Below, piece after piece: positions 43,649 through 60,358 of a stretch of 64,000 nt of DNA; position 1 is the first letter of the stretch; every line of letters begins with the position of its first letter. The notes under the pieces were generated by a model. That model was given only the letters and a program-made list of their open reading frames with translations. It was not told where the DNA came from and did not search any database. The DNA is from Candidatus Zhuqueibacterota bacterium. GTDB taxonomy: Bacteria; Zhuqueibacterota; Zhuqueibacteria; Oceanimicrobiales; Oceanimicrobiaceae. Location: positions 13,473-77,472 of the forward strand of contig JAJDAG010000017.1 of the NCBI GenBank assembly GCA_029262005.1. The letters run 5' to 3'. Both the position numbers and the translations under genes were made by a program.

Positions 43649-44557
43649 TTACTTCAACATGGGGAATAACCTCTTGATTTCTTCGTCACTGGGCTGCTTA
43701 CCGTACTCGCATATTTCAAATGCTTCGGCATATTTTACATCAGTGGCTTTGTGAGTTCCGTACCATTTTTCAAGCGAGTCCCGGAGTTCAGGTGAGATAG
43801 AGGAACCCTGGTAGACCCCGAACACCTCCTTTAACCATTTCTTGCGGTCGGCAGCGCCTTCAGGTACTTCATCCGCTCTTCCCACTGTCCATGGCATCCA
43901 TTCATAAAACTGGGAAACGTGCGCATCCAGGCCAGCCATCTTTTTATCAACGGTTTTGTCGATAGCTACTGCTATGTCGGGTCGAAATGGATTCGGCCGC
44001 TGGAAACGATCGCTGAAATAAAGAAAAATCGGATTTTTTTTCAACGGCGGTGTATCCGGCGTGACATTCGGCACGATTACCAGATAGGCGGCATCCTGGA
44101 CCAACTCGCCCGTATAACGGTGGTCCGGATGGTAGTCATTCGGACGAGGAGAAAGCACAACGTCAGCATTCCACTTCCGGATTTCCCGTATGATCTGATG
44201 CCTGACTTTCAGACTGGGTACCAACTCAGCATCATGATTGTCTAAAGTAACATATTCGTCGATGCCTAAACGATGGGCGGATTCTTGGGCTTCGGCACGT
44301 CTGCGCCTGGCGAGGGCGCCACCGCCTTCTGTTTGGTGTCCGGCATCCCCATTGGTGACAGACACAAACTTCACCGCGTGCCCCATTTCGGCAAAAAGGG
44401 CGGCGGTGCCGCCAAACTTTGCATCGCAGTCGTCCGGGTGAGCTCCAATAGCTATGATTCGAAGCTTCCCACCATCCGTACCCGAACTTTGTGCGAATGA
44501 TAAAATGGTACTTAAAAGTATTGATGTAAGAACTAATAACTGCTTCATGGTATGCAC
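43649..44557 (-). CDS. PIG-L/LmbE-family N-acetylglucosaminyl deacetylase with signal peptide (periplasmic)
   Basis: Signal peptide MHTMKQLLVLTSILLSTILSFAQS. Zinc-binding motif IIAIGAHPDDCDAKFGGT and HPDH downstream. Confidence 0.75.
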   Translation of the reverse strand: MHTMKQLLVLTSILLSTILSFAQSSGTDGGKLRIIAIGAHPDDCDAKFGGTAALFAEMGHAVKFVSVTNGDAGHQTEGGGALARRRRAEAQESAHRLGIDEYVTLDNHDAELVPSLKVRHQIIREIRKWNADVVLSPRPNDYHPDHRYTGELVQDAAYLVIVPNVTPDTPPLKKNPIFLYFSDRFQRPNPFRPDIAVAIDKTVDKKMAGLDAHVSQFYEWMPWTVGRADEVPEGAADRKKWLKEVFGVYQGSSISPELRDSLEKWYGTHKATDVKYAEAFEICEYGKQPSDEEIKRLFPMLK

Positions 44558-51903: not shown

Positions 51904-52515
51904 TTATGTCGGGGGCGCCAGCAGCGTCTTAAGACGGTGGTATGCTTCCGACAAATAATTGCGTACGACTTGGGGTCTTACGCTCATAATCTCGGCGATT
52001 TCTTTATAGGTTAGATTGTCATTCATCTTAAGATAAAGCGCCTCCCGCATCCGCGCCGGAATCTTTTTAAATGCAGACCGAAGCCTTTTCTGTTCAAATG
52101 TTTCCTGCTCTGCAAATATCATCAAATCTTCCAGTGTAAACACGTTGTCAACTTGTTCCACCGTAAACTCTTGATGAGCTGTTTCTTGCCGCCGTTGCTT
52201 GCTAAGGGTATTCAACAAACGGCGGCGCAATGAAACAAGCAGATAGGCTTTAATTGAATCCACCGATGAAAGATTTCTTCGTTTTTCCCAAATATATAAA
52301 AACAGTTCCTGGATAGCGTCTTTTACTAACTCTTCTTCTCTGGCCAGTTTTACGCCATAGTCGAATAGGTAAGAATAATAGGCTCGAAACAAAGACTCCA
52401 AAGCCTGAGCATCGCCTTTTTTTAACCGCGCCCAAACTTGACGCTCCTTTTGAATTCGCTCAAGCTTATCGGACGACTCTAAAGAATTTGAAATAGATAC
52501 GTTATTATTTTTCAA
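51904..52515 (-). CDS. ECF sigma-70 factor controlling the PUL
   Basis: Region 2 (YYSYLFDYGVKLAREEELVKDAIQELFLYIW) and region 4 HTH (LTYKEIAEIMSVRPQVVRNYLSEAYHRLK). Confidence 0.85.
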   Translation of the reverse strand: MKNNNVSISNSLESSDKLERIQKERQVWARLKKGDAQALESLFRAYYSYLFDYGVKLAREEELVKDAIQELFLYIWEKRRNLSSVDSIKAYLLVSLRRRLLNTLSKQRRQETAHQEFTVEQVDNVFTLEDLMIFAEQETFEQKRLRSAFKKIPARMREALYLKMNDNLTYKEIAEIMSVRPQVVRNYLSEAYHRLKTLLAPPT

Positions 52516-52559
52516 TTAGAAGAAGCATTTTGTTAGCGCACGATGCAAACTCAATTAAC

Positions 52560-52712
52560 CTAATTAATTCTTAAAAAGTGACAGACGGAGGCAAACTCCA
52601 CAGCGTGACCCACTTCAGTAAAAAGGTCGGCCGTGCCTCTGAGGCTTACATCGCAGTCATCGGGGTGTGCACCAATCATAATGACTCGAATTTGTCCATC
52701 AACCGAACCGTT
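52560..52712 (-). pseudogene. Truncated N-terminal fragment of a PIG-L/LmbE deacetylase (gene remnant, about 45 codons)
   Basis: The minus strand translates to NINGSVDGQIRVIMIGAHPDDCDVSLRGTADLFTEVGHAVEFASVCHFLRIN then stop. Residues 1-44 are homologous to GGKLRIIAIGAHPDDCDAKFGGTAALFAEMGHAVKFVSV in the intact gene at 43649..44557. Homology then stops abruptly with a stop after 5 unrelated codons, and there is an in-frame stop immediately upstream. Confidence 0.5.
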
Positions 52713-53024
52713 TATATTTTAAGCGAGTGCTAAAGTAATGTTGCATAGCGTTATTATAGTAGACGTTTCATTTGGGTTCTCCCGCGTTTAGGCTGTTGCT
52801 AGCGCGGCTTAGGATGTTGCAAAAAAGACTTATACAGAATAAAAGAAAGCTGGAAGAAAAAGTCAAATTCTATTTCGGCTAAGAAATGAAGCCTTCAGGG
52901 CGGTATCTATGCAGTGAGGATTTTTGAGTACCAGTCTTGCACCATTTTTCAGACAGTGTTAACTGTTGTAATATCTATTGTGAACCGCCGGAAAGCACTC
53001 GTCAGGGTAGAGCCGTAAATTCTG

Positions 53025-53597
53025 TTATCGGTCACAAATTTCGCTAAAATTCCTCAAAATTTTCTTGCCTTCATCAGTCAAAATTGATTCCGGATGAAAC
53101 TGCAGCCCAAACAAATCCATGCTTGTGTGCTGCAGCGCCATGATTGTTGCATCATCGGTTTCAGCAGTGACAACAAAGTCCGCCGGCAAACTTACCCGGT
53201 CTACGGTGAGTGAGTGGTAGCGGGTCGCTTTAAACGGTGACGGAACATGCTTAAATAATCTGCTGCCGTCATGTGAAATCATTGAAGTTTTGCCGTGCAT
53301 TAGCCTGGGTGCCGGAACAACCAAACCGGCGAAGGCATAAGCCAGGGCTTGATGACCGAGACAAACGCCCAGAATTGGTTGCCTACCGGCGGTCTCTTTA
53401 ATTAGCTGCACAGAGATCCCGGCATCTTCCGGACGCCCCGGTCCCGGCGACACAACAATTCCGGCCGGCGCCAGTTTTTTTACCTGTCCAACTTCAATTT
53501 CATCGTTGCGGCATACGTACAATTCAGCGCCAAGCTCCCCGAGATATTGCACCAGGTTGTAAGTAAACGAGTCATAATTATCGATAACTAAAATCAT
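53025..53597 (-). CDS. trpG: Anthranilate synthase component II (glutamine amidotransferase)
   Basis: MILVIDNYDSFTYNLVQYLGELG with the GATase triad context GVCLGHQ and HPES. 20-nt overlap with the upstream trpE remnant. Confidence 0.85.
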   Translation of the reverse strand: MILVIDNYDSFTYNLVQYLGELGAELYVCRNDEIEVGQVKKLAPAGIVVSPGPGRPEDAGISVQLIKETAGRQPILGVCLGHQALAYAFAGLVVPAPRLMHGKTSMISHDGSRLFKHVPSPFKATRYHSLTVDRVSLPADFVVTAETDDATIMALQHTSMDLFGLQFHPESILTDEGKKILRNFSEICDR

Positions 53598-54150
53598 TGA
53601 AGCCCCTTTTCGGCAAAATCAATCGCCGCGCCCGCAACGCAGCAGATTTATGTAATGTTTCGTCAAATTCTCGTCCGGGAACAGAGTCGGCCACAATGCC
53701 GGCCCCTGCTTGAGAATAAGCGCAATCCCCCTTGGTGACAATCGTGCGAATGGCAATACAAGTGTCCAGGTTTCCAGAAAAATCGAGATAGCCAAGCGCA
53801 CCACCGGCAAACCTTGGCAAACCATCGAACCTTGCGACTTTGTAGCGGGAAAAGCGCGCGCTTAAGTGTTCAAAAATATTGCCATGCATTTGACTGTGCC
53901 GACCGTTTTCCCTAACATCAAGAACATTTCGAGTGCAACGAATAGATGCAAACGGGCTGCACCCGAGAAAGGAGAAGCGTGCTGTTTTTTCACCACCCTC
54001 CACATTCTCAAACAAAAACACCTCGGAAGAAAGTGTTTGCAAGCATTGACATACAGAAACCGGGGTTAGCATATCAGCAAGGCAGGTGGTATAAACAGGG
54101 ATTACGTTTGCCTGTTTGGCAGCGTCAGTGAATTCATCAAAACTGGTCAT
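53578..54150 (-). pseudogene. trpE: Anthranilate synthase component I (TrpE) carrying an in-frame internal deletion of the catalytic core. This 190-aa mini-TrpE is probably non-functional.
   Basis: Residues 1-127 match the TrpE N-terminal regulatory region up to the LPRFAGGALGY motif (FDEF..NVIPVY..LADMLTPVS...FLFENVEGGEKTARFSFLG). The next residues, LDFSGNLDTCIAIRTIVTKGDCAYSQAGAGIVADSVPGREFDETLHKSAALRA, match the last ~60 aa of TrpE. They align with the C-terminal GGAVGYFTAHGDLDTCIVIR block, so about 320 aa between the two GGAxGY motifs are missing. Confidence 0.6.
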
Positions 54151-54160
54151 GGTCGGCCCT

Positions 54161-54196
54161 AAAAAAACCCACTACATTTATTTATGCAGTGGGTTT
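54161..54196 (-). terminator. Rho-independent terminator / attenuator hairpin 10 nt upstream of the trpE start
   Basis: Minus-strand RNA AAACCCACUGC-AUAAAUAAAU-GUAGUGGGUUUUUUU. 8-bp stem with one G.U pair, 10-nt loop, 7 U. Confidence 0.55.
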
Positions 54197-54231
54197 GAGT
54201 TGGTGTAGAAGATATTTTATTTGATAATCAT

Positions 54232-54315
54232 CTATTCGAAACTGAACACTTCTTTCCCATTATTGACTGGCCACCAAGACCCAAAAAAACGAGCTGTGGG
54301 AAAATAAGCGTTCAT
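54232..54315 (-). CDS. trpL: Candidate trp leader peptide (27 aa) with tandem Trp codons
   Basis: Minus-strand ORF verified codon by codon: MNAYFPTARFFGSWWPVNNGKEVFSFE. The UGG-UGG pair is at 54276..54271. The stop lies 32 nt before the terminator hairpin. Confidence 0.5.
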   Translation of the reverse strand: MNAYFPTARFFGSWWPVNNGKEVFSFE

Positions 54316-54520
54316 TCTTGCCTAGCTATTTGATTAGTTAATGAGTTGCAAATATAAAGTAAAAATATTAAACGTCAAGTGTTTTGTGTCGGAGGGAAAA
54401 TTCTGCTCTATGTCGGTAACCGTTCAGTCCTGCAACTGCTTTCACCGTCTCAATTGCGGCGTAACTGTATATGAGTTACTCGGAAGCTGTTGGCTTATTG
54501 ACAAAAAAGTCAATATGAAA

Positions 54521-56638
54521 CTATTTTGTCAGCACCACCTTTTTAACTGCGGTGAATTCCTTTCCTGCCTGCAACCTGACAAAATAACTGCCGCTGGCGT
54601 AACCCGTTGCATCCCAAACGAGCCTGTGCCACCCTTCAGGCTGTTTGTTGTTGAGGAGAACCGCAACTCTTTGTCCGCGCACATTATAGATTTCCAGCAG
54701 CACATGTGTCGCCTTTTGCAGTGAATACTCAATTTGCGTGGTCGGGTTAAATGGATTCGGGTAATTCTGCCTCAGAGCAAAATCCTTGATCAACGAATTA
54801 TCGCTTGCAGTCTCTTCAACTGCGCTCACCACATTGCCGGTGAACATTTGCACACCAGGACCGGCATCGCCATAGCCGGCAAAAATTTTTGTGGCATCAT
54901 CTGAAATAATAACACTCATGGTACTGATTAAGTAAGGATGGTAAGGATTCGGCATTTCACCGGGTTGAGAATGTTCCCAGAGCAAATTTCCGTTGACATC
55001 CCAAAGCATGGTTTTAAATGGCGCATCGGTAGCGGCGCCGCCCACAGCAATGTATTTTCCATCAGGCGTCATATCAATGGCATTATGGCCACCATTTTCA
55101 TCAACGGCGCGCTTCCAAAGCAGATTGCCGTCACCATCGTACAGTCGCACAACACCGTTGTGACTGAGCGCGGCAATGCGTGAAGCATCGCTGCTCATAT
55201 CTGCATCGGTAAGGATTGGAATAAAATGACGCCATTGCCAGTTGCCCTGCCAGTCGTAGCAAGTTAACTGATTGCCTTTATCTGCTGATATAATTTTACT
55301 ATTGTCCGAAGTTATGCCAATTAGGTAAGGGGCAATGCCACCTATATTTCGTTCCCACACGAAATTTCCATTTACATCTAGAAGCACCAGTGAACTTCCG
55401 CCGCCGATGGCGACATGCGAATTGTCCTGACTAAATTTGATGCCGCGCCAGTGTACATCGTAAAAGGGGAATTGCCAAAGGATGTTGCCTGTGGCAGCAT
55501 CTACCATTCTAAATGGCGCAACTTCATAGGCTACAAAGTCCCCACTGTTTGATATGTTTATTTCACGAATCTGATCATGTGGATTAAGACGATGCTCCCA
55601 AACTTCCTCGCCGTTTGCCCCAATTGCAACGATTTGTCCGCCATCTGTACCCACTACCACGAGGGAACCGTCCTTCCTAATGTCCATGCCCCAAGCCTGC
55701 TCATTAACCGAAAAATTCCAAATCCTTGTTCCAGTTGTGGTAAAAAGGCGAACATGGGTCGAGTCCAGAGGCGTGTCCCACTCATCCGGGTGTTTGCCGA
55801 GGCAAACCGCTAAATGATTCCAGTCTTGAGAGGGAATTACATGCCAAACACCCGGCCGCTGTAGTGGCTCATACCAGGCTGGGATAAAGTTTGCCTGTGC
55901 TGCCAGTGGTTTTAAGTTTGCTTCAACCGTAAGTCCCGTCTGTCCAGCTTCAGGTGCAAGGGGATCGAGGATGGCGCTCTCATATCCTGGGCAATGCACC
56001 TCAAGCCTGTAACCAAGCCAGCCTTTTTCATGTGCATCTGAAATGGCTTTTAGTGAATCAAACTGCATCACCGAATATCGAAAATCCCCACTTGGTTCTA
56101 TCTGCATATTTTCTTTATGTGCCCCGACCCAGACAACACTGCGGGCCCGGTCCAGGCGTAGCCCGGTAGATGCATCACGAACAGTTACACGGATTTCAAA
56201 AGAATTTGCAGGACCTGCGGGTGCATAACTACCAAAATGTTGCAATTGCACAGTTTTTACAATTTTGTTTAAGGTGTCTTTGTCAGAGTAAAATTCGCAA
56301 TCAAGGGTATGTTGTGGGTACGTGCCCTTGTTCAACCCGCTGAGAATAACCGCTTTTGCTTCCTCACCGGGTTCGAGATGAATATAAGTGGGGCCATGCA
56401 AGTCAAACCACCCAGTCTGCGGTGTTAAGTTTACATTCACAAGCACATGCTCCGTATCGGTGCCGGTATTCGTCAAAGTAGCTGTGATTGCCGTTGACCG
56501 GTCGAACGGTTCAACTTGAGAAAAAGTGCTTGAATCAAAAACAACTGTGAAATTTTGCGCCACAGCGTTGGTTGCTGTGTACATAGAAAGCGATAGGATG
56601 ACGATAAGAAAACCATATTTGTGTCGCATAGGTAGCAT
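54521..56638 (-). CDS. Secreted PQQ-like/WD40-like beta-propeller protein with a T9SS C-terminal sorting domain
   Basis: Signal peptide MRHKYGFLIVILSLSMYTATNAVA. Repeated beta-propeller blades (GEEVWEHRL, GNILWQFPF, GNFVWERNIGG, GNWQWRHF, GNLLWKRAV, GNLLWEH). C-terminal ALRQNYPNPFNPTTQIEYSL...SGSYFVRLQAG T9SS CTD signature. Confidence 0.7.
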   Translation of the reverse strand: MLPMRHKYGFLIVILSLSMYTATNAVAQNFTVVFDSSTFSQVEPFDRSTAITATLTNTGTDTEHVLVNVNLTPQTGWFDLHGPTYIHLEPGEEAKAVILSGLNKGTYPQHTLDCEFYSDKDTLNKIVKTVQLQHFGSYAPAGPANSFEIRVTVRDASTGLRLDRARSVVWVGAHKENMQIEPSGDFRYSVMQFDSLKAISDAHEKGWLGYRLEVHCPGYESAILDPLAPEAGQTGLTVEANLKPLAAQANFIPAWYEPLQRPGVWHVIPSQDWNHLAVCLGKHPDEWDTPLDSTHVRLFTTTGTRIWNFSVNEQAWGMDIRKDGSLVVVGTDGGQIVAIGANGEEVWEHRLNPHDQIREINISNSGDFVAYEVAPFRMVDAATGNILWQFPFYDVHWRGIKFSQDNSHVAIGGGSSLVLLDVNGNFVWERNIGGIAPYLIGITSDNSKIISADKGNQLTCYDWQGNWQWRHFIPILTDADMSSDASRIAALSHNGVVRLYDGDGNLLWKRAVDENGGHNAIDMTPDGKYIAVGGAATDAPFKTMLWDVNGNLLWEHSQPGEMPNPYHPYLISTMSVIISDDATKIFAGYGDAGPGVQMFTGNVVSAVEETASDNSLIKDFALRQNYPNPFNPTTQIEYSLQKATHVLLEIYNVRGQRVAVLLNNKQPEGWHRLVWDATGYASGSYFVRLQAGKEFTAVKKVVLTK

Positions 56639-56786: not shown

Positions 56787-58304
56787 ATGGCTGTTAAAAT
56801 TAATATTTTCGAAATAAGAATAGAGAATACATTGAAAGAATCCACCAACTCCCCCGATGAACAGCAAAAAAAACATTTACCTGAAATTTCTTTAGAAGGC
56901 TTGCCAGAGAGTTTACGCAAAGCCGTGGCACGCACAAACTGGAATGCACTCATGCCTGTTCAAGCTCAGGCAATCCCCTATCTTCTCGCTTCCCGCGATG
57001 TGATGATACAGGCACGAACTGGTAGCGGTAAAACAGGGGCTTTCCTCTTGCCACTGCTTGAGCGCCTCGACCCGGATAAACCGCACTGTCAGGCACTCAT
57101 TCTTGTTCCCACGCGCGAGCTTGCACAACAAGTGTGGACTGAAGCCCAAACACTCTGCGGCGAAAAAGGCCTCCGATCTGTTGCAGTATATGGAGGGGTT
57201 GGCTACAAGCCGCAAGTTGACGCCCTCAAGGGGGGCGCTCATATTGTCATTGGAACGCCTGGCCGTGTGCTCGATCATTTGCTCAAGCGCACTTTTGCGC
57301 TCAAAAACATCAGATTGCTGATCTTCGACGAGGCAGATCGTATGTTATCGATGGGTTTTTACCCGGACATGAGAAAAATGCAAACACACTTACCGAAACG
57401 TGCGATCAACACCTGCATGTTTTCAGCCACGTTTCCAAGCTATGTTATGCGGACGGCTCAAGAGTTTCTTCATGACGAAGAATTTCTTTCTCTTAGTGGG
57501 GAAGAGGTTCATGTCTCCGACACCGAGCATATCGCTTATACTGTTCCCGGCATGGACCGGGAGCGCAGCCTTGTGCGTTTAATTGAAATGGAAAACCCCG
57601 CATCTGCCATAATATTCTGTAATATGAAAGACACGGTACATTACGTGGCAGTTGTTCTGCAACGATTCGGCTATGACGCAGATGAGCTGACTTCTAATCT
57701 TTCGCAGAAGGCTCGTGAGCATGTTTTGCAACGTGTCCGCAAAGGAACACTGCGTTTTTTGGTTGCAACGGATGTGGCAGCACGTGGCCTCGACATTCCA
57801 GATCTATCTCATGTTTTTCAGTATGAACCGCCTGAGGATCCTGAAAGTTACATCCACAGGGCCGGAAGAACAGGCAGGGCAGGCGCCAGTGGGGTTGCCA
57901 TTTCACTTGCTACAAATATAGAAATGTCTGCTCTTGAGCGCATTGCAAAGCGTTACAGTATCGATTTGCAGGAACGACCGCTGCCCACAGTTGAAGATGT
58001 TGAGGCTATTGTTACCGAACGTTTGACAATCTTACTTGAGGCGCGCCTGCGTGAGCGTGATAAACTTCAGACCGAACGCAGCCTGCGATTTATGCCGCTC
58101 GCACGCACGTTGATCGAAAATGCCGATGAGTCCGCCATCATTGCGATGCTGCTGGATGATTACTATCAGGAAGTTCTGCATGCGCCTCTCATTCAACCTG
58201 ATGCCCCGCCACCAATTCAAAAGGAATATATTCAAGAACGCAGCAAGGACAATCAAAAAAGACCAGGCCATCGCCGCGGAAAACCCAGGCCAAGGAATCG
58301 ATGA
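56787..58304 (+). CDS. DEAD-box ATP-dependent RNA helicase with a basic C-terminal tail
   Basis: Q-motif, Walker A ARTGSGKTGAF, PTRELA, DEAD box LIFDEADRM, SAT, HRAGRTGRAG, basic C-terminal extension. It is the only convincing plus-strand gene. Confidence 0.9.
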   Translation: MAVKINIFEIRIENTLKESTNSPDEQQKKHLPEISLEGLPESLRKAVARTNWNALMPVQAQAIPYLLASRDVMIQARTGSGKTGAFLLPLLERLDPDKPHCQALILVPTRELAQQVWTEAQTLCGEKGLRSVAVYGGVGYKPQVDALKGGAHIVIGTPGRVLDHLLKRTFALKNIRLLIFDEADRMLSMGFYPDMRKMQTHLPKRAINTCMFSATFPSYVMRTAQEFLHDEEFLSLSGEEVHVSDTEHIAYTVPGMDRERSLVRLIEMENPASAIIFCNMKDTVHYVAVVLQRFGYDADELTSNLSQKAREHVLQRVRKGTLRFLVATDVAARGLDIPDLSHVFQYEPPEDPESYIHRAGRTGRAGASGVAISLATNIEMSALERIAKRYSIDLQERPLPTVEDVEAIVTERLTILLEARLRERDKLQTERSLRFMPLARTLIENADESAIIAMLLDDYYQEVLHAPLIQPDAPPPIQKEYIQERSKDNQKRPGHRRGKPRPRNR

Positions 58305-58531: not shown

Positions 58532-60358
58532 CTAGTGCCGCTTAAACCGCCTGTCCAATTCATCCAGTGAAACATGAATGAGCACAGGTCGTCCATGCGG
58601 GCAGAAATAAGGTTCTCTCGTTGAAAAAAGCTGGTCGATTAAGCCATTCATTTCATCCAGACTCAGCGGATCACCAGCGCGTATGGCTGAATGGCAGGCA
58701 AAAGATGCTGCCACATTTTCGCGTATTTCGGTACGATCGTTTTTCCCGCGCTTGTACTCATCCAATATTTGCAGTAAAATTCGTTCGTCGTCTTTTATCT
58801 TGACATCCGTTGGAACGCCTTCCACAACGACTGTGTTTTTACCAAAGGCCTTAACCACAAAACCAACATTTTCGAGGAAAGGAATCATTTCCAGCAGGAT
58901 GGAATAATCTTGCTGTGAAAGTTCAATGATTTGCGGAAATAACAATTGTTGCGAAGAAGGTTTTCGCGTTTCAAAACTGTCAAGCGCCCGCTCATAGAGA
59001 ATACGTTCATGTGCGACGTGCTGGTCGATAACAATAAGGCCATTTTTGATTTGCGAGATGATGTATTTTTTGTGGACTTGCCAAACATTGAGCCGCTCAA
59101 ATGATGCATCAACTGTCCGATTCGCAGCAGTTTGTACGGACGCTGGCATTGAAGCTGAACCATCGCCCTCCACGCCAGTAGATGTACTTTCGGCCTTTAG
59201 AAAACGGCCATCCGGCCAGCCAGGCAAAGGTGCCCGGCCAGGCTCAAAAGAGAGTTGACTAGCAGCAGCCTCACGCCCTGAGTTTATCGAGCTGGGGCTC
59301 ATAGACTCAGCCTTGTGAAAACTTTCTCCTGCAGCAGTCCATGGTGAAATTTCCGGAATGACGTGGTGTGACGTGAGCGCCCTTTTGACAGCACCGCGTA
59401 CTGAACTGAAAATCAGTGCATCATTAGCAAATTTTATTTCCATTTTGGTAGGATGCACGTTCACATCAACCTGACTTGTGTCCATTTCGATATTTACGAT
59501 ATAAATTGGATAAGAACCGCGTGGCAGGATTTCGCCAAACGCTGCAACTACTGCATAATTCAAGTTCTTGCTTGTGAAAAATCTGCGATTAAAATACATG
59601 TATTGGTCGCCGCGTGACCGACGCACAACATCCTGATTGCCCACAAACCCTGTTATCTTGACAGGGCCATCGTTTTCAATTTCGATCATATTTTTGCGTA
59701 TGCGTGCGCCCAGCACAGAACCAATTCTTGACTCGTGCGATTCGCTCGTCAGCTCATACACTACCTGATCCTCGTTCACAAGCGTAAATGCAATTTCGGG
59801 GTAAGCCAGACAGAAACGACTCATAACAGTGAGAATTTGACGATATTCCGCATTGACACTCTTTAAAAATTTTCGGCGTGCCGGTGTGTTAAAAAACAAA
59901 TTTTTCACCGCAATGGATGTTCCGGGCCGACCGGCACTGGCAGTCACGCTATTCATGACTCCGCCCTCAATACGCAAACTGTGGCCTGAAGACTCGCCTT
60001 GAAGAACCGATCGTGTGTCCACTTGTGCTACGGAAGCAATACTGGCAAGCGCTTCACCTCTAAATCCCAGTGTACTGACATTAGCAAGGTCATCAAATAC
60101 GGCTATTTTACTCGTTGCATGCCGCTGAAATGCTAAAACCAAATCCGGCTCGGTCATGCCGCCACCGTTATCAACAACCTGCAACAATGCTTTACCGCCC
60201 TCGCGCATAATCACCGTAATATCATCCGCGCCTGAATCAATGGAATTTTCGACCAATTCCTTAACGACCGAAGCCGGCCTGTCAACGACCTCCCCTGCGG
60301 CAATTTTGTTCGTCAAATTTTCAGGTAGAATTCGGATTTTGTTTAGGCTGGCTGTCAT
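58532..60358 (-). CDS. mutL: DNA mismatch repair protein MutL
   Basis: GHKL ATPase N-terminus (IRILPENLTNKIAAGEVVDRPASVVKELVENSIDSGA, DNGGGM, GFRGEALASI). C-terminal dimerisation/endonuclease domain with CPHGRP. Confidence 0.9.
   Translation of the reverse strand: MTASLNKIRILPENLTNKIAAGEVVDRPASVVKELVENSIDSGADDITVIMREGGKALLQVVDNGGGMTEPDLVLAFQRHATSKIAVFDDLANVSTLGFRGEALASIASVAQVDTRSVLQGESSGHSLRIEGGVMNSVTASAGRPGTSIAVKNLFFNTPARRKFLKSVNAEYRQILTVMSRFCLAYPEIAFTLVNEDQVVYELTSESHESRIGSVLGARIRKNMIEIENDGPVKITGFVGNQDVVRRSRGDQYMYFNRRFFTSKNLNYAVVAAFGEILPRGSYPIYIVNIEMDTSQVDVNVHPTKMEIKFANDALIFSSVRGAVKRALTSHHVIPEISPWTAAGESFHKAESMSPSSINSGREAAASQLSFEPGRAPLPGWPDGRFLKAESTSTGVEGDGSASMPASVQTAANRTVDASFERLNVWQVHKKYIISQIKNGLIVIDQHVAHERILYERALDSFETRKPSSQQLLFPQIIELSQQDYSILLEMIPFLENVGFVVKAFGKNTVVVEGVPTDVKIKDDERILLQILDEYKRGKNDRTEIRENVAASFACHSAIRAGDPLSLDEMNGLIDQLFSTREPYFCPHGRPVLIHVSLDELDRRFKRH

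Follow-up and report, generated by a model that had tools for sequence, protein, structure and literature searches.

A clade-specific tryptophan leader-peptide attenuator family and its probably degenerate copy upstream of a trpE pseudogene

Identification of the leader and its family

The 64,000-nt stretch of DNA analysed here (the window, in whose coordinates positions are given) carries on its minus strand a leader, the remnant of a trpE gene and trpG. As judged from the sequences, the leader is a homologous copy, beyond chance, of a clade-specific leader family, and that family is a classical ribosome-mediated (leader-peptide) attenuator, with helices that are backed by covariation and dynamics that we infer. 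On the basis of folding predictions we consider it probable that the copy in the window is degenerate and no longer switches. An attenuation architecture of the Escherichia coli type had been put forward in the original prediction. This holds for the family, which has an upstream open reading frame (ORF), UGG codons and three exclusive, covarying helices, but the anti-terminator of the window copy appears to be broken.

Relatives of the window locus were found by a protein-database search with TrpG followed by look-up of the contigs, which gave nine distinct loci (L083, L084, L085, L087, L088, L090, L091, L092 and L094). Two of the TrpG proteins carry NCBI names, 'Calditrichaeota bacterium' for L092/L093 and 'candidate division KSB1 bacterium' for L094; the original suggestion of an attenuator outside the Proteobacteria is borne out by these names of the nearest loci. 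To judge from these relatives, the organism of the window probably falls within the same Calditrichota/KSB1-like group, and its genes for type IX secretion and for SusC/D are in keeping with a member of the FCB group. Where the contig is long enough (L083-L087), the leader is followed by trpE-G-D-C-F-B-A and by the genes for chorismate mutase, DAHP synthase and prephenate dehydrogenase (PDH), and the shorter loci show the same gene order as far as their contigs reach. Five loci (L083, L084, L085, L087 and L091) encode MutL a short distance upstream of the leader, in three of them preceded by RadC. A gene for ribosomal protein S21 lies between MutL and the leader in L091, and in L092 MutL is farther upstream with another gene between. 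The window leader occupies the same position as in the relatives, directly upstream of trpE in a RadC-MutL-...-trpEG neighbourhood. Other searches were less productive. TrpG matched at least 80 loci from many phyla in a genome collection, with 54-67% identity and none of the clade among the matches listed; the N-terminus of TrpE found one unrelated locus in metagenome contigs (38%), which was without a leader; and a protein search with the TrpE remnant was swamped by fragments carrying the C-terminal motif, the N-terminal 122 residues matching the query alone.

A leader ORF is present at the equivalent site in all nine relatives (MKAIHSTSAYWFWYWYYYASSGMDMFASRI, MTNFLSTNSYWFWYWYYRASSGKDAFTMSA, MQSILSTMKYWQLWYWYYYAHSGKDARGISPG, MNRILSTYFWRFWFWYWYYFTSGGKDTAKEPGN, MQILHTNNNWWLWYWYYFTNSGRDARKSP, MTRNLSTNNFWYYWYWYPIHSGRETRRLP, MTDRRFSTTFSNAYWYWYFYFTIVGKIRVRAMLT, (V)QTILSTTAVSYYYWSWYWRYRVNSGKGLVAPPD and MKSTVSINKRNKSCIYYWAWYWYCAPEVGGICP), each followed by AACCCACU...AGUGGGUUUUUU(A/G)UU. 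These ORFs contain 2-4 UGG codons within 6-8 codons (3-4 in eight of the nine, two in L084), embedded in Tyr and Phe codons, and the sequence of the peptide is poorly conserved outside the RNA motifs. The comparison with related trpE leaders that the original prediction had proposed thus came out in its favour, in that the leader ORF with its UGG codons and the covarying helices recur in every relative.

A covariance model (R1) was built from the nine relatives alone, with the window excluded. It matched positions 54315-54161 of the minus strand with 65.7 bits (E 5e-11), the match starting exactly at the leader ATG; there was no second significant match in the 64-kb window and none in the 80 listed trpG loci of other phyla. 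With the models of Rfam 15, Trp_leader (RF00513), Bacteroid-trp (RF01692) and T-box were without a match in window region 53500-55000 at E <= 10, in the whole window at the gathering score and in six relatives at E <= 1. Weak matches to other Rfam models (rli38, His_leader and others) reflect the terminator hairpin only. The Calditrichota/KSB1-type leader family is absent from Rfam 15.

The leader peptides of the relatives are rich in Tyr, Phe and Trp (for example YWFWYWYYY and FWRFWFWYWYYF; L083:4371-4463, L085:4370-4462, L087:4350-4448, L090:1337-1438 and others). Such a leader before a trp-plus-aro supra-operon suggests that several aromatic amino acids are sensed by one leader, and in the relatives, where the operon includes chorismate mutase, DAHP synthase and prephenate dehydrogenase, this may be all three. 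We also note that UUUUUU(A/G)UU stands just past the terminator in all nine relatives, seven of which read UUUUUUAUUUU (e.g. L085:4518-4537 and L087:4504-4520); the window differs here, with UUUUUUUAGGGCC.

Alternative helices of the family

Alignment A1 comprises ten sequences, the nine relatives and the window. The first helix, P1, joins segment 1 (..CCUUUCCAC), which covers codons about 4-7, to segment 2 (GUGGGAAGG..) near the end of the ORF and encloses the Trp codons in its loop. P1 is 8-14 bp long, and in four of its pairs both partners have changed (U-A to A-U, U-A to C-G and C-G to U-A). The second helix is the terminator, formed by segments 3 and 4; over its 12 counted pairs 96.7% of the cells are paired, two of the pairs covary and the core CCCAC...GUGGGUUUUUU is invariant across the family. 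For P1 and the terminator together 92.2% of the cells are paired, compared with 42-54% when the partners are slid, and the covariation score was reached by none of 500 shuffles.

The third helix is the anti-terminator, in which segment 2 (AUAGUGGG) pairs with the 5' arm of the terminator (CCCACUAU). Here 95% of the cells are paired compared with 27-54% for slid partners, and two pairs covary; GCAGUGGG, GUAGUGGG and AUAGUGGG each complement their own terminator arm. The shuffle statistics for this helix (45-87 of 500) are not decisive alone, the helix being short and the ten sequences related. The AGUGGGA motif is found in three reading frames, which encode S-S-G, I-V-G and E-V-G, and its retention across different frames indicates a constraint on the RNA and not on the peptide. 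The folds show a further, inner helix, GGAU...AUCC, next to a 2x2 AA/AA loop. In several relatives a small hairpin (UGGUAUUAUUUUACCA) lies between the last UGG and segment 2.

In equilibrium folds of the full leader, through the U tract, the terminator wins in nine of the ten sequences (all but L094). Equilibrium folding fails to separate the window from the relatives, in keeping with a switch that would be decided kinetically, and a nascent-transcript test was used instead, in which the 5' part of the RNA was masked up to A-site+12. With the ribosome stalled, segments 2 and 3 are predicted to pair with P = 1.00 in nine of nine relatives. The mutually exclusive anti-terminator and terminator that folding had been expected to reveal are therefore predicted for the relatives but not for the window, where the corresponding value is 0.13-0.19.

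The mechanism that we propose for the family draws on this anatomy and on the E. coli trp paradigm, the helices themselves being shown by covariation. A sigma-70-type promoter would give a leader of ~200 nt encoding a peptide of ~30 residues. Segment 1 (UUUCCAC, early in the ORF) and segment 2 (GUGGGAAGG) would form P1, the anti-anti-terminator; segment 2, a copy of the 3' arm of the terminator, could instead pair with segment 3 (AUCC-AA-CCCACUAU) as the anti-terminator, and segments 3 and 4 would form the terminator. When Trp-tRNA is scarce the ribosome would stall on the UGG codons, occupying the P1 loop and masking segment 1, and segment 2, which starts 13-18 nt from the last UGG, would emerge free and capture segment 3 before segment 4 is made, leading to read-through. 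When Trp is plentiful the ribosome would continue to the stop codon, which lies 22-29 nt beyond segment 2 (14 nt in L094); with the ribosome unstalled P1 would re-form, the terminator would form and transcription would end.

The copy in the window

The features of the window copy are listed in Table 1. Its putative promoter has ten of 12 matches to the consensus in a scan, and TTGACA-N17-TATATT/TAGATT is its counterpart at the equivalent position in all of the relatives. The position of this promoter would imply a transcribed leader of ~195 nt. The leader of 370 nt given in the original prediction is correct as an intergenic distance (54521 to 54150), but not as the length of the transcript. 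The 27-residue peptide with its two consecutive Trp codons was confirmed, as was a strong intrinsic terminator with seven U residues that ends 10 nt before the trpE ATG at 54150. The stem of this terminator, however, is of 13 bp and not eight (a 10-bp core including one G-U pair, and three A-U pairs), and it begins 35 nt, not 32, after the leader stop codon (38 nt to CCCAC). The energy of the hairpin is -18.3 kcal/mol, and the 201-nt leader region folds with z = -4.06. P1 is formed by UUUUCCCA:UGGGAAAG, an 8-bp helix with a predicted probability of 0.98 in the ribosome-free fold, in which a U-to-C change in segment 1 has converted a U-G pair of the family to C-G. No tRNA or other RNA genes were found in the window.

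Table 1. Coordinates of the leader elements and of the trp genes in the window.
Feature	Position	Strand	Description
Putative sigma-70-like promoter	54378-54351	minus	-35 TTGACG (54378-54373), N16, -10 TATATT (54356-54351)
Leader peptide ORF	54315-54232	minus	27 codons + UAG (54234-54232), MNAYFPTARFFGSWWPVNNGKEVFSFE; homologous to leaders of relatives, e.g. MTNFLSTNSYWFWYWYYRASSGKDAFTMSA
Tandem Trp codons UGG UGG	54276-54271	minus	Codons 14-15 of leader ORF; putative regulatory codons
Segment 1, UUUUCCCA	54304-54297	minus	Alignment A1 columns 25-32; P1 partner of segment 2, Trp codons in loop
Segment 2, AUAAUGGGAAAG	54263-54252	minus	3' part UGGGAAAG (54259-54252) pairs with segment 1; 5' part AUAAUGGG versus family anti-terminator strand AUAGUGGG
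Intrinsic terminator (segments 3 and 4)	54196-54161	minus	5' arm AAACCCACUGCAU (54196-54184), loop AAAUAA, 3' arm AUGUAGUGGGUUU (54177-54165), then UUUU; seven U in all
trpE pseudogene	54150-53578	minus	190-aa ORF; N-terminal ~116 residues fused in frame to last ~55 residues
trpG (class-I glutamine amidotransferase subunit)	53597-53025	minus	Intact; Pfam GATase 195 bits
Non-coding scar	53024-52516	minus	~500 nt in place of trpD...PDH of relatives

The window copy belongs to the leader-peptide attenuator class in its ORF with clustered Trp codons, its terminator and its 1:2 helix, while the anti-terminator helix, present in nine of nine relatives, is by prediction lacking. Segment 2 reads AUAAUGGG where the family has AUAGUGGG, a G-to-A change that gives AAUGGG for AGUGGG, and at alignment pair 96-170 the window is the sole unpaired sequence. 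The window also lacks the inner GGAU/AUCC helix, and ahead of CCCAC it reads CACCAACUCAAACCCAC where the relatives have AUCCAACCCAC, with extra bases in the window. One or two UGG codons have been lost from the leader, together with the run of Tyr. What is left of the 2:3 pairing is UGGG:CCCA (4 bp) plus 2 bp. In the modelled nascent fold with a stalled ribosome CCCAC (54193-54189) has a pairing probability of 0.13-0.19, and the minimum free energy (MFE) is -8.8 kcal/mol versus -15 to -35 in the relatives; in the MFE structure the region of segment 2 pairs with CUUCUACACCA and CCCAC is left free. Since CCCAC is predicted to be free under these conditions, the terminator should form with or without stalling. 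The putative promoter, the ORF, the two UGG codons, the 8-bp P1 and the strong terminator survive and the anti-terminator, by prediction, does not, and the element is now probably a largely constitutive terminator, a relic after the loss of the tryptophan pathway genes from the locus.

Several points weigh against this interpretation. All of the switch dynamics rest on thermodynamic prediction. The ORF, UGG UGG, P1, the promoter and an excellent terminator have all stayed intact, which is more than would be expected of a long-dead element, and trpG behind the leader is intact and has evolved at a normal rate. A degree of regulated expression may still be of importance. In a leave-one-out model (R2) the window and a held-out KSB1 member score alike (61.4 versus 61.8 bits), and the overall divergence of the window copy is thus not abnormal; a low covariance-model score as a sign of decay was rejected for this reason. 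The relatives that were compared all have <=70% TrpG identity, and the window lineage could have a different, working anti-terminator. Finally, the window covers 64 kb of the genome and trpD-A could lie elsewhere. The case for loss of function is made not by overall divergence but by the lost anti-terminator, the smaller set of UGG codons and the condition of the operon.

The trp locus in the window

That the first enzyme of the operon is inactivated, as originally predicted, was confirmed. Alignment to the nine full-length TrpE sequences of the relatives indicates that ~298 internal residues have been lost in frame, and there is a 1-nt frameshift after AALRA, near 53631-53626. Residues 26-122 of the 190-residue ORF match Anth_synt_I_N of Pfam; of Chorismate_bind, no more than the final 53 positions are covered. 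The deletion junction is within GGALGY (about 53805-53788), and a motif of this type occurs twice in TrpE (..FTGGAVGYF.. and ..YAGALGYLDF..), which points to loss by deletion between short direct repeats. The +2 frame of trpE reads AIDFAEKGLQ*, in agreement with the relatives; in this frame the ancestral stop/start overlap (ATGA) with trpG is regained. Over the retained columns TrpE of the window is 54-61% identical to the relatives, compared with 59-71% among the relatives; for TrpG, the alignment gives 63-68%, within the 61-74% range among the relatives. Window positions 51953-55314 are 100% identical in the Logan assembly of run SRR15505514, an independent assembly that may share the same reads; with that qualification, an assembly artefact is unlikely as the source of the trpE deletion.

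In describing a leader that guards an operon with a dead first enzyme, the original prediction was right about trpE but understated the loss, as trpD, C, F, B and A and the aro genes are also absent from the window. A tblastn search of the window with the operon proteins of the relatives found RadC (73%), MutL (68%), two pieces of TrpE and TrpG (69%). TrpD, TrpC, TrpF, TrpA, chorismate mutase and DAHP synthase had no match anywhere in the 64 kb, and the sole match of TrpB was a weak one to a PALP-type sequence (29% identity, 17069-16755), far from the trp locus. Beyond the scar that stands in place of these genes there is a cluster encoding an extracytoplasmic function (ECF) sigma factor, FecR, SusC and SusD.

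Some further features of the locus may be mentioned. Inside the scar, between trpG and the ECF sigma gene, is a fragment of an LmbE-like gene (57 aa, 52748-52578, minus strand) with 51% identity to the LmbE/PIG-L-like gene at 43649-44557 over residues 14-69 of the latter. Two extra genes separate MutL (58532-60358) from the leader in the window, whereas MutL is directly upstream of the leader in L083, L085 and L087. One encodes a DEAD-box helicase (plus strand, 56787-58304), and the other a PQQ-like beta-propeller protein with a C-terminal sorting domain of the type IX secretion system (T9SS), at 54521-56638, with its stop at 54521, 325 nt before the hairpin. TrpE ORFs with internal deletions also occur elsewhere in public data (proteins P0004 and P0063). 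P0004 has 186 residues, 123 member sequences and 18 contigs of up to 140 kb, and a repeated (A/S)PKI motif marks the junction of its N-terminal and C-terminal parts; TrpE of this type may reflect recurrent repeat-mediated deletion or a genuine short form.

Alternative interpretations

A first alternative to a degenerate copy is a fully working attenuator of the E. coli type that tunes trpG, perhaps as a shared PabA-type amidotransferase, with either the residual UGGG:CCCA or UUGGUG:CACCAA plus GGG:CCC as the anti-terminator. We regard this as unlikely. It is favoured by the intact ORF, tandem UGG codons, P1, terminator and promoter, by an intact trpG of normal divergence and by a spacing between the last UGG and segment 2 that is near the values of the relatives. 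The UUGGUG:CACCAA part of the second pairing corresponds to the switch of the original prediction, given there as UGGUGG:CACCA. Its complementarity is real (UUGGUG at 54278-54273 with CACCAA, 6 bp, -8.9 kcal/mol), but CACCA does not lie immediately 5' of the terminator arm, as CUC stands between them. As a switch it is not supported: the UGGUGG strand would be inside the stalled ribosome just when anti-termination is needed, the pairing sequesters neither arm of the terminator and differs from the anti-terminator of the family, and it has no consistent counterpart in the relatives. The residual 2:3 pairing, of 4 bp plus 2 bp, also argues against a working attenuator through its low predicted occupancy (0.13-0.19), and no tryptophan pathway is left at the locus to regulate.

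We think it quite improbable that two things hold together, namely that the family is built on a modular Calditrichota/KSB1-like scaffold (an invariant AACCCAC...GUGGGUUUUUUAUUU, an in-ORF copy of the 3' arm, and either Trp, Tyr and Phe or His codons) and that the window copy has been kept for a trans-acting RNA or peptide or for throttling trpG.

Retention of the leader for a role of its own, whether as a trans-acting short terminated RNA, as the 27-residue peptide or as a switch at the level of translation, with the trpE start masked by the Trp-codon region, is very unlikely in our judgement. The promoter, ORF and terminator are preserved despite the dead operon, and the attenuator-derived rnTrpL/peTrpL reported for Sinorhizobium meliloti provides a precedent (PMC6614838, PMC7298713). 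In addition, the Trp-codon region GGUCUUGGUGGCC (54281-54269) is complementary to GGCCGACCAUGACC (54158-54145), which spans the trpE ATG, over 12 bp with two mismatches. This duplex has an energy of -21.8 kcal/mol, is matched by 36 of 2000 shuffled leaders and dominates the full-leader MFE. However, it is absent from all of the relatives and is matched by 255 of 2000 shuffled start regions, and a role for the peptide sits poorly with its low conservation outside the RNA motifs. As the long-range pairing is not conserved, and as p is 0.018 with the leader shuffled and 0.13 with the start region shuffled, it is probably due to chance.

Coincidence, by which a chance small ORF would stand before the terminator of the upstream T9SS-tailed gene or before a stand-alone hairpin, can practically be dismissed: small ORFs are abundant in the six-frame list and a simple terminator scan did not flag the hairpin, but the model built from the relatives finds the leader at E 5e-11 and nothing in the listed trpG loci of other phyla, the ORF, UGG codons, P1 and terminator stand in identical order directly before trpE in nine relatives, and the upstream gene ends 325 nt before the hairpin.

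Comparison with known attenuators

Candidate attenuators in several phyla are reportedly described in work by Vitreschak and co-workers from 2004 and by Lopatovskaya and co-workers from 2010. In the literature library that was searched, no paper connects Calditrichaeota with tryptophan attenuation. The window leader is most likely a new clade-specific member of the classical leader-peptide attenuators which has degenerated here. A close parallel in design is trpL of E. coli and other enterobacteria (Rfam Trp_leader, RF00513), which likewise has an upstream ORF with tandem Trp codons, three overlapping helices upstream of trpE and a read-out of ribosome position. The family nevertheless shows no similarity to RF00513 in sequence or by covariance model. 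Its Trp codons are in the P1 loop and not within segment 1, and its segment 2 is inside the ORF, 22-29 nt before the stop codon (14 nt in L094). It also differs in that the leader is Tyr/Phe-rich as well and would control an aromatic supra-operon, and in that the window copy appears to be without a competent 2:3 helix.

The statement in the original prediction that this architecture is infrequently documented outside the Proteobacteria is too strong, as it has been predicted in Bacteroidetes and Actinobacteria. Bacteroid-trp (RF01692) is a predicted Trp leader-peptide attenuator upstream of trpE or trpB in Bacteroidetes (Weinberg et al., 2010; PMC2864571 supplement). It resembles the present family in being non-proteobacterial and in having at least two conserved UGG codons followed by a hairpin. 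That hairpin is described as a 'loosely conserved hairpin' (PMC2864571), whereas in the present family the terminator core, AACCCAC...GUGGGUUUUUUAUUUU, is highly conserved and both P1 and the anti-terminator are well defined; the RF01692 model matches neither the window nor six of the relatives. Classical trp attenuation in Actinobacteria was predicted by comparative genomics (Seliverstov et al., 2005; PMC1262725). Those leaders are from another phylum and unrelated in sequence, and components are missing there throughout a lineage, while the loss seen here is confined to one decayed copy. In S. meliloti the trpL attenuator lies upstream of trpE(G) and is reported to give rise to the trans-acting rnTrpL/peTrpL (PMC6614838, PMC7298713). 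A terminated RNA or peptide with roles of its own could explain why a leader outlives its operon, but there is no sequence relation between the two leaders and a trans function for that of the window is speculative.

The present family extends covariation-backed classical attenuation to the poorly studied Calditrichota/KSB1 lineage and could be added to annotation resources. It does not overturn current understanding and will not surprise a specialist. If our interpretation of the window copy is correct, it provides a natural example of attenuator decay after operon loss, in which the anti-terminator goes first and a default-off terminator remains. It also calls for caution in annotation, since the presence of Trp codons in an ORF and of a terminator behind it is no proof of a working switch.

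A histidine leader on the same scaffold was noted in one of the relatives, at L090:546-687 (minus strand), upstream of hisG (L090:1-441, minus strand). Its peptide, MKLQVWKIYRHLYHHAHHKSMMVGCVLIPEPIP, has five His in eight codons. Within the ORF, GGUGGGUUGCG complements CGCAACCCAC in the terminator arm, the terminator being AACCCACUAUC..GGUAGUGGGUUUUUUAUUU, and the trp-leader models match this leader with scores of 40 and 38.9 bits. These features suggest that the clade has re-used a modular attenuator design for different amino acids.

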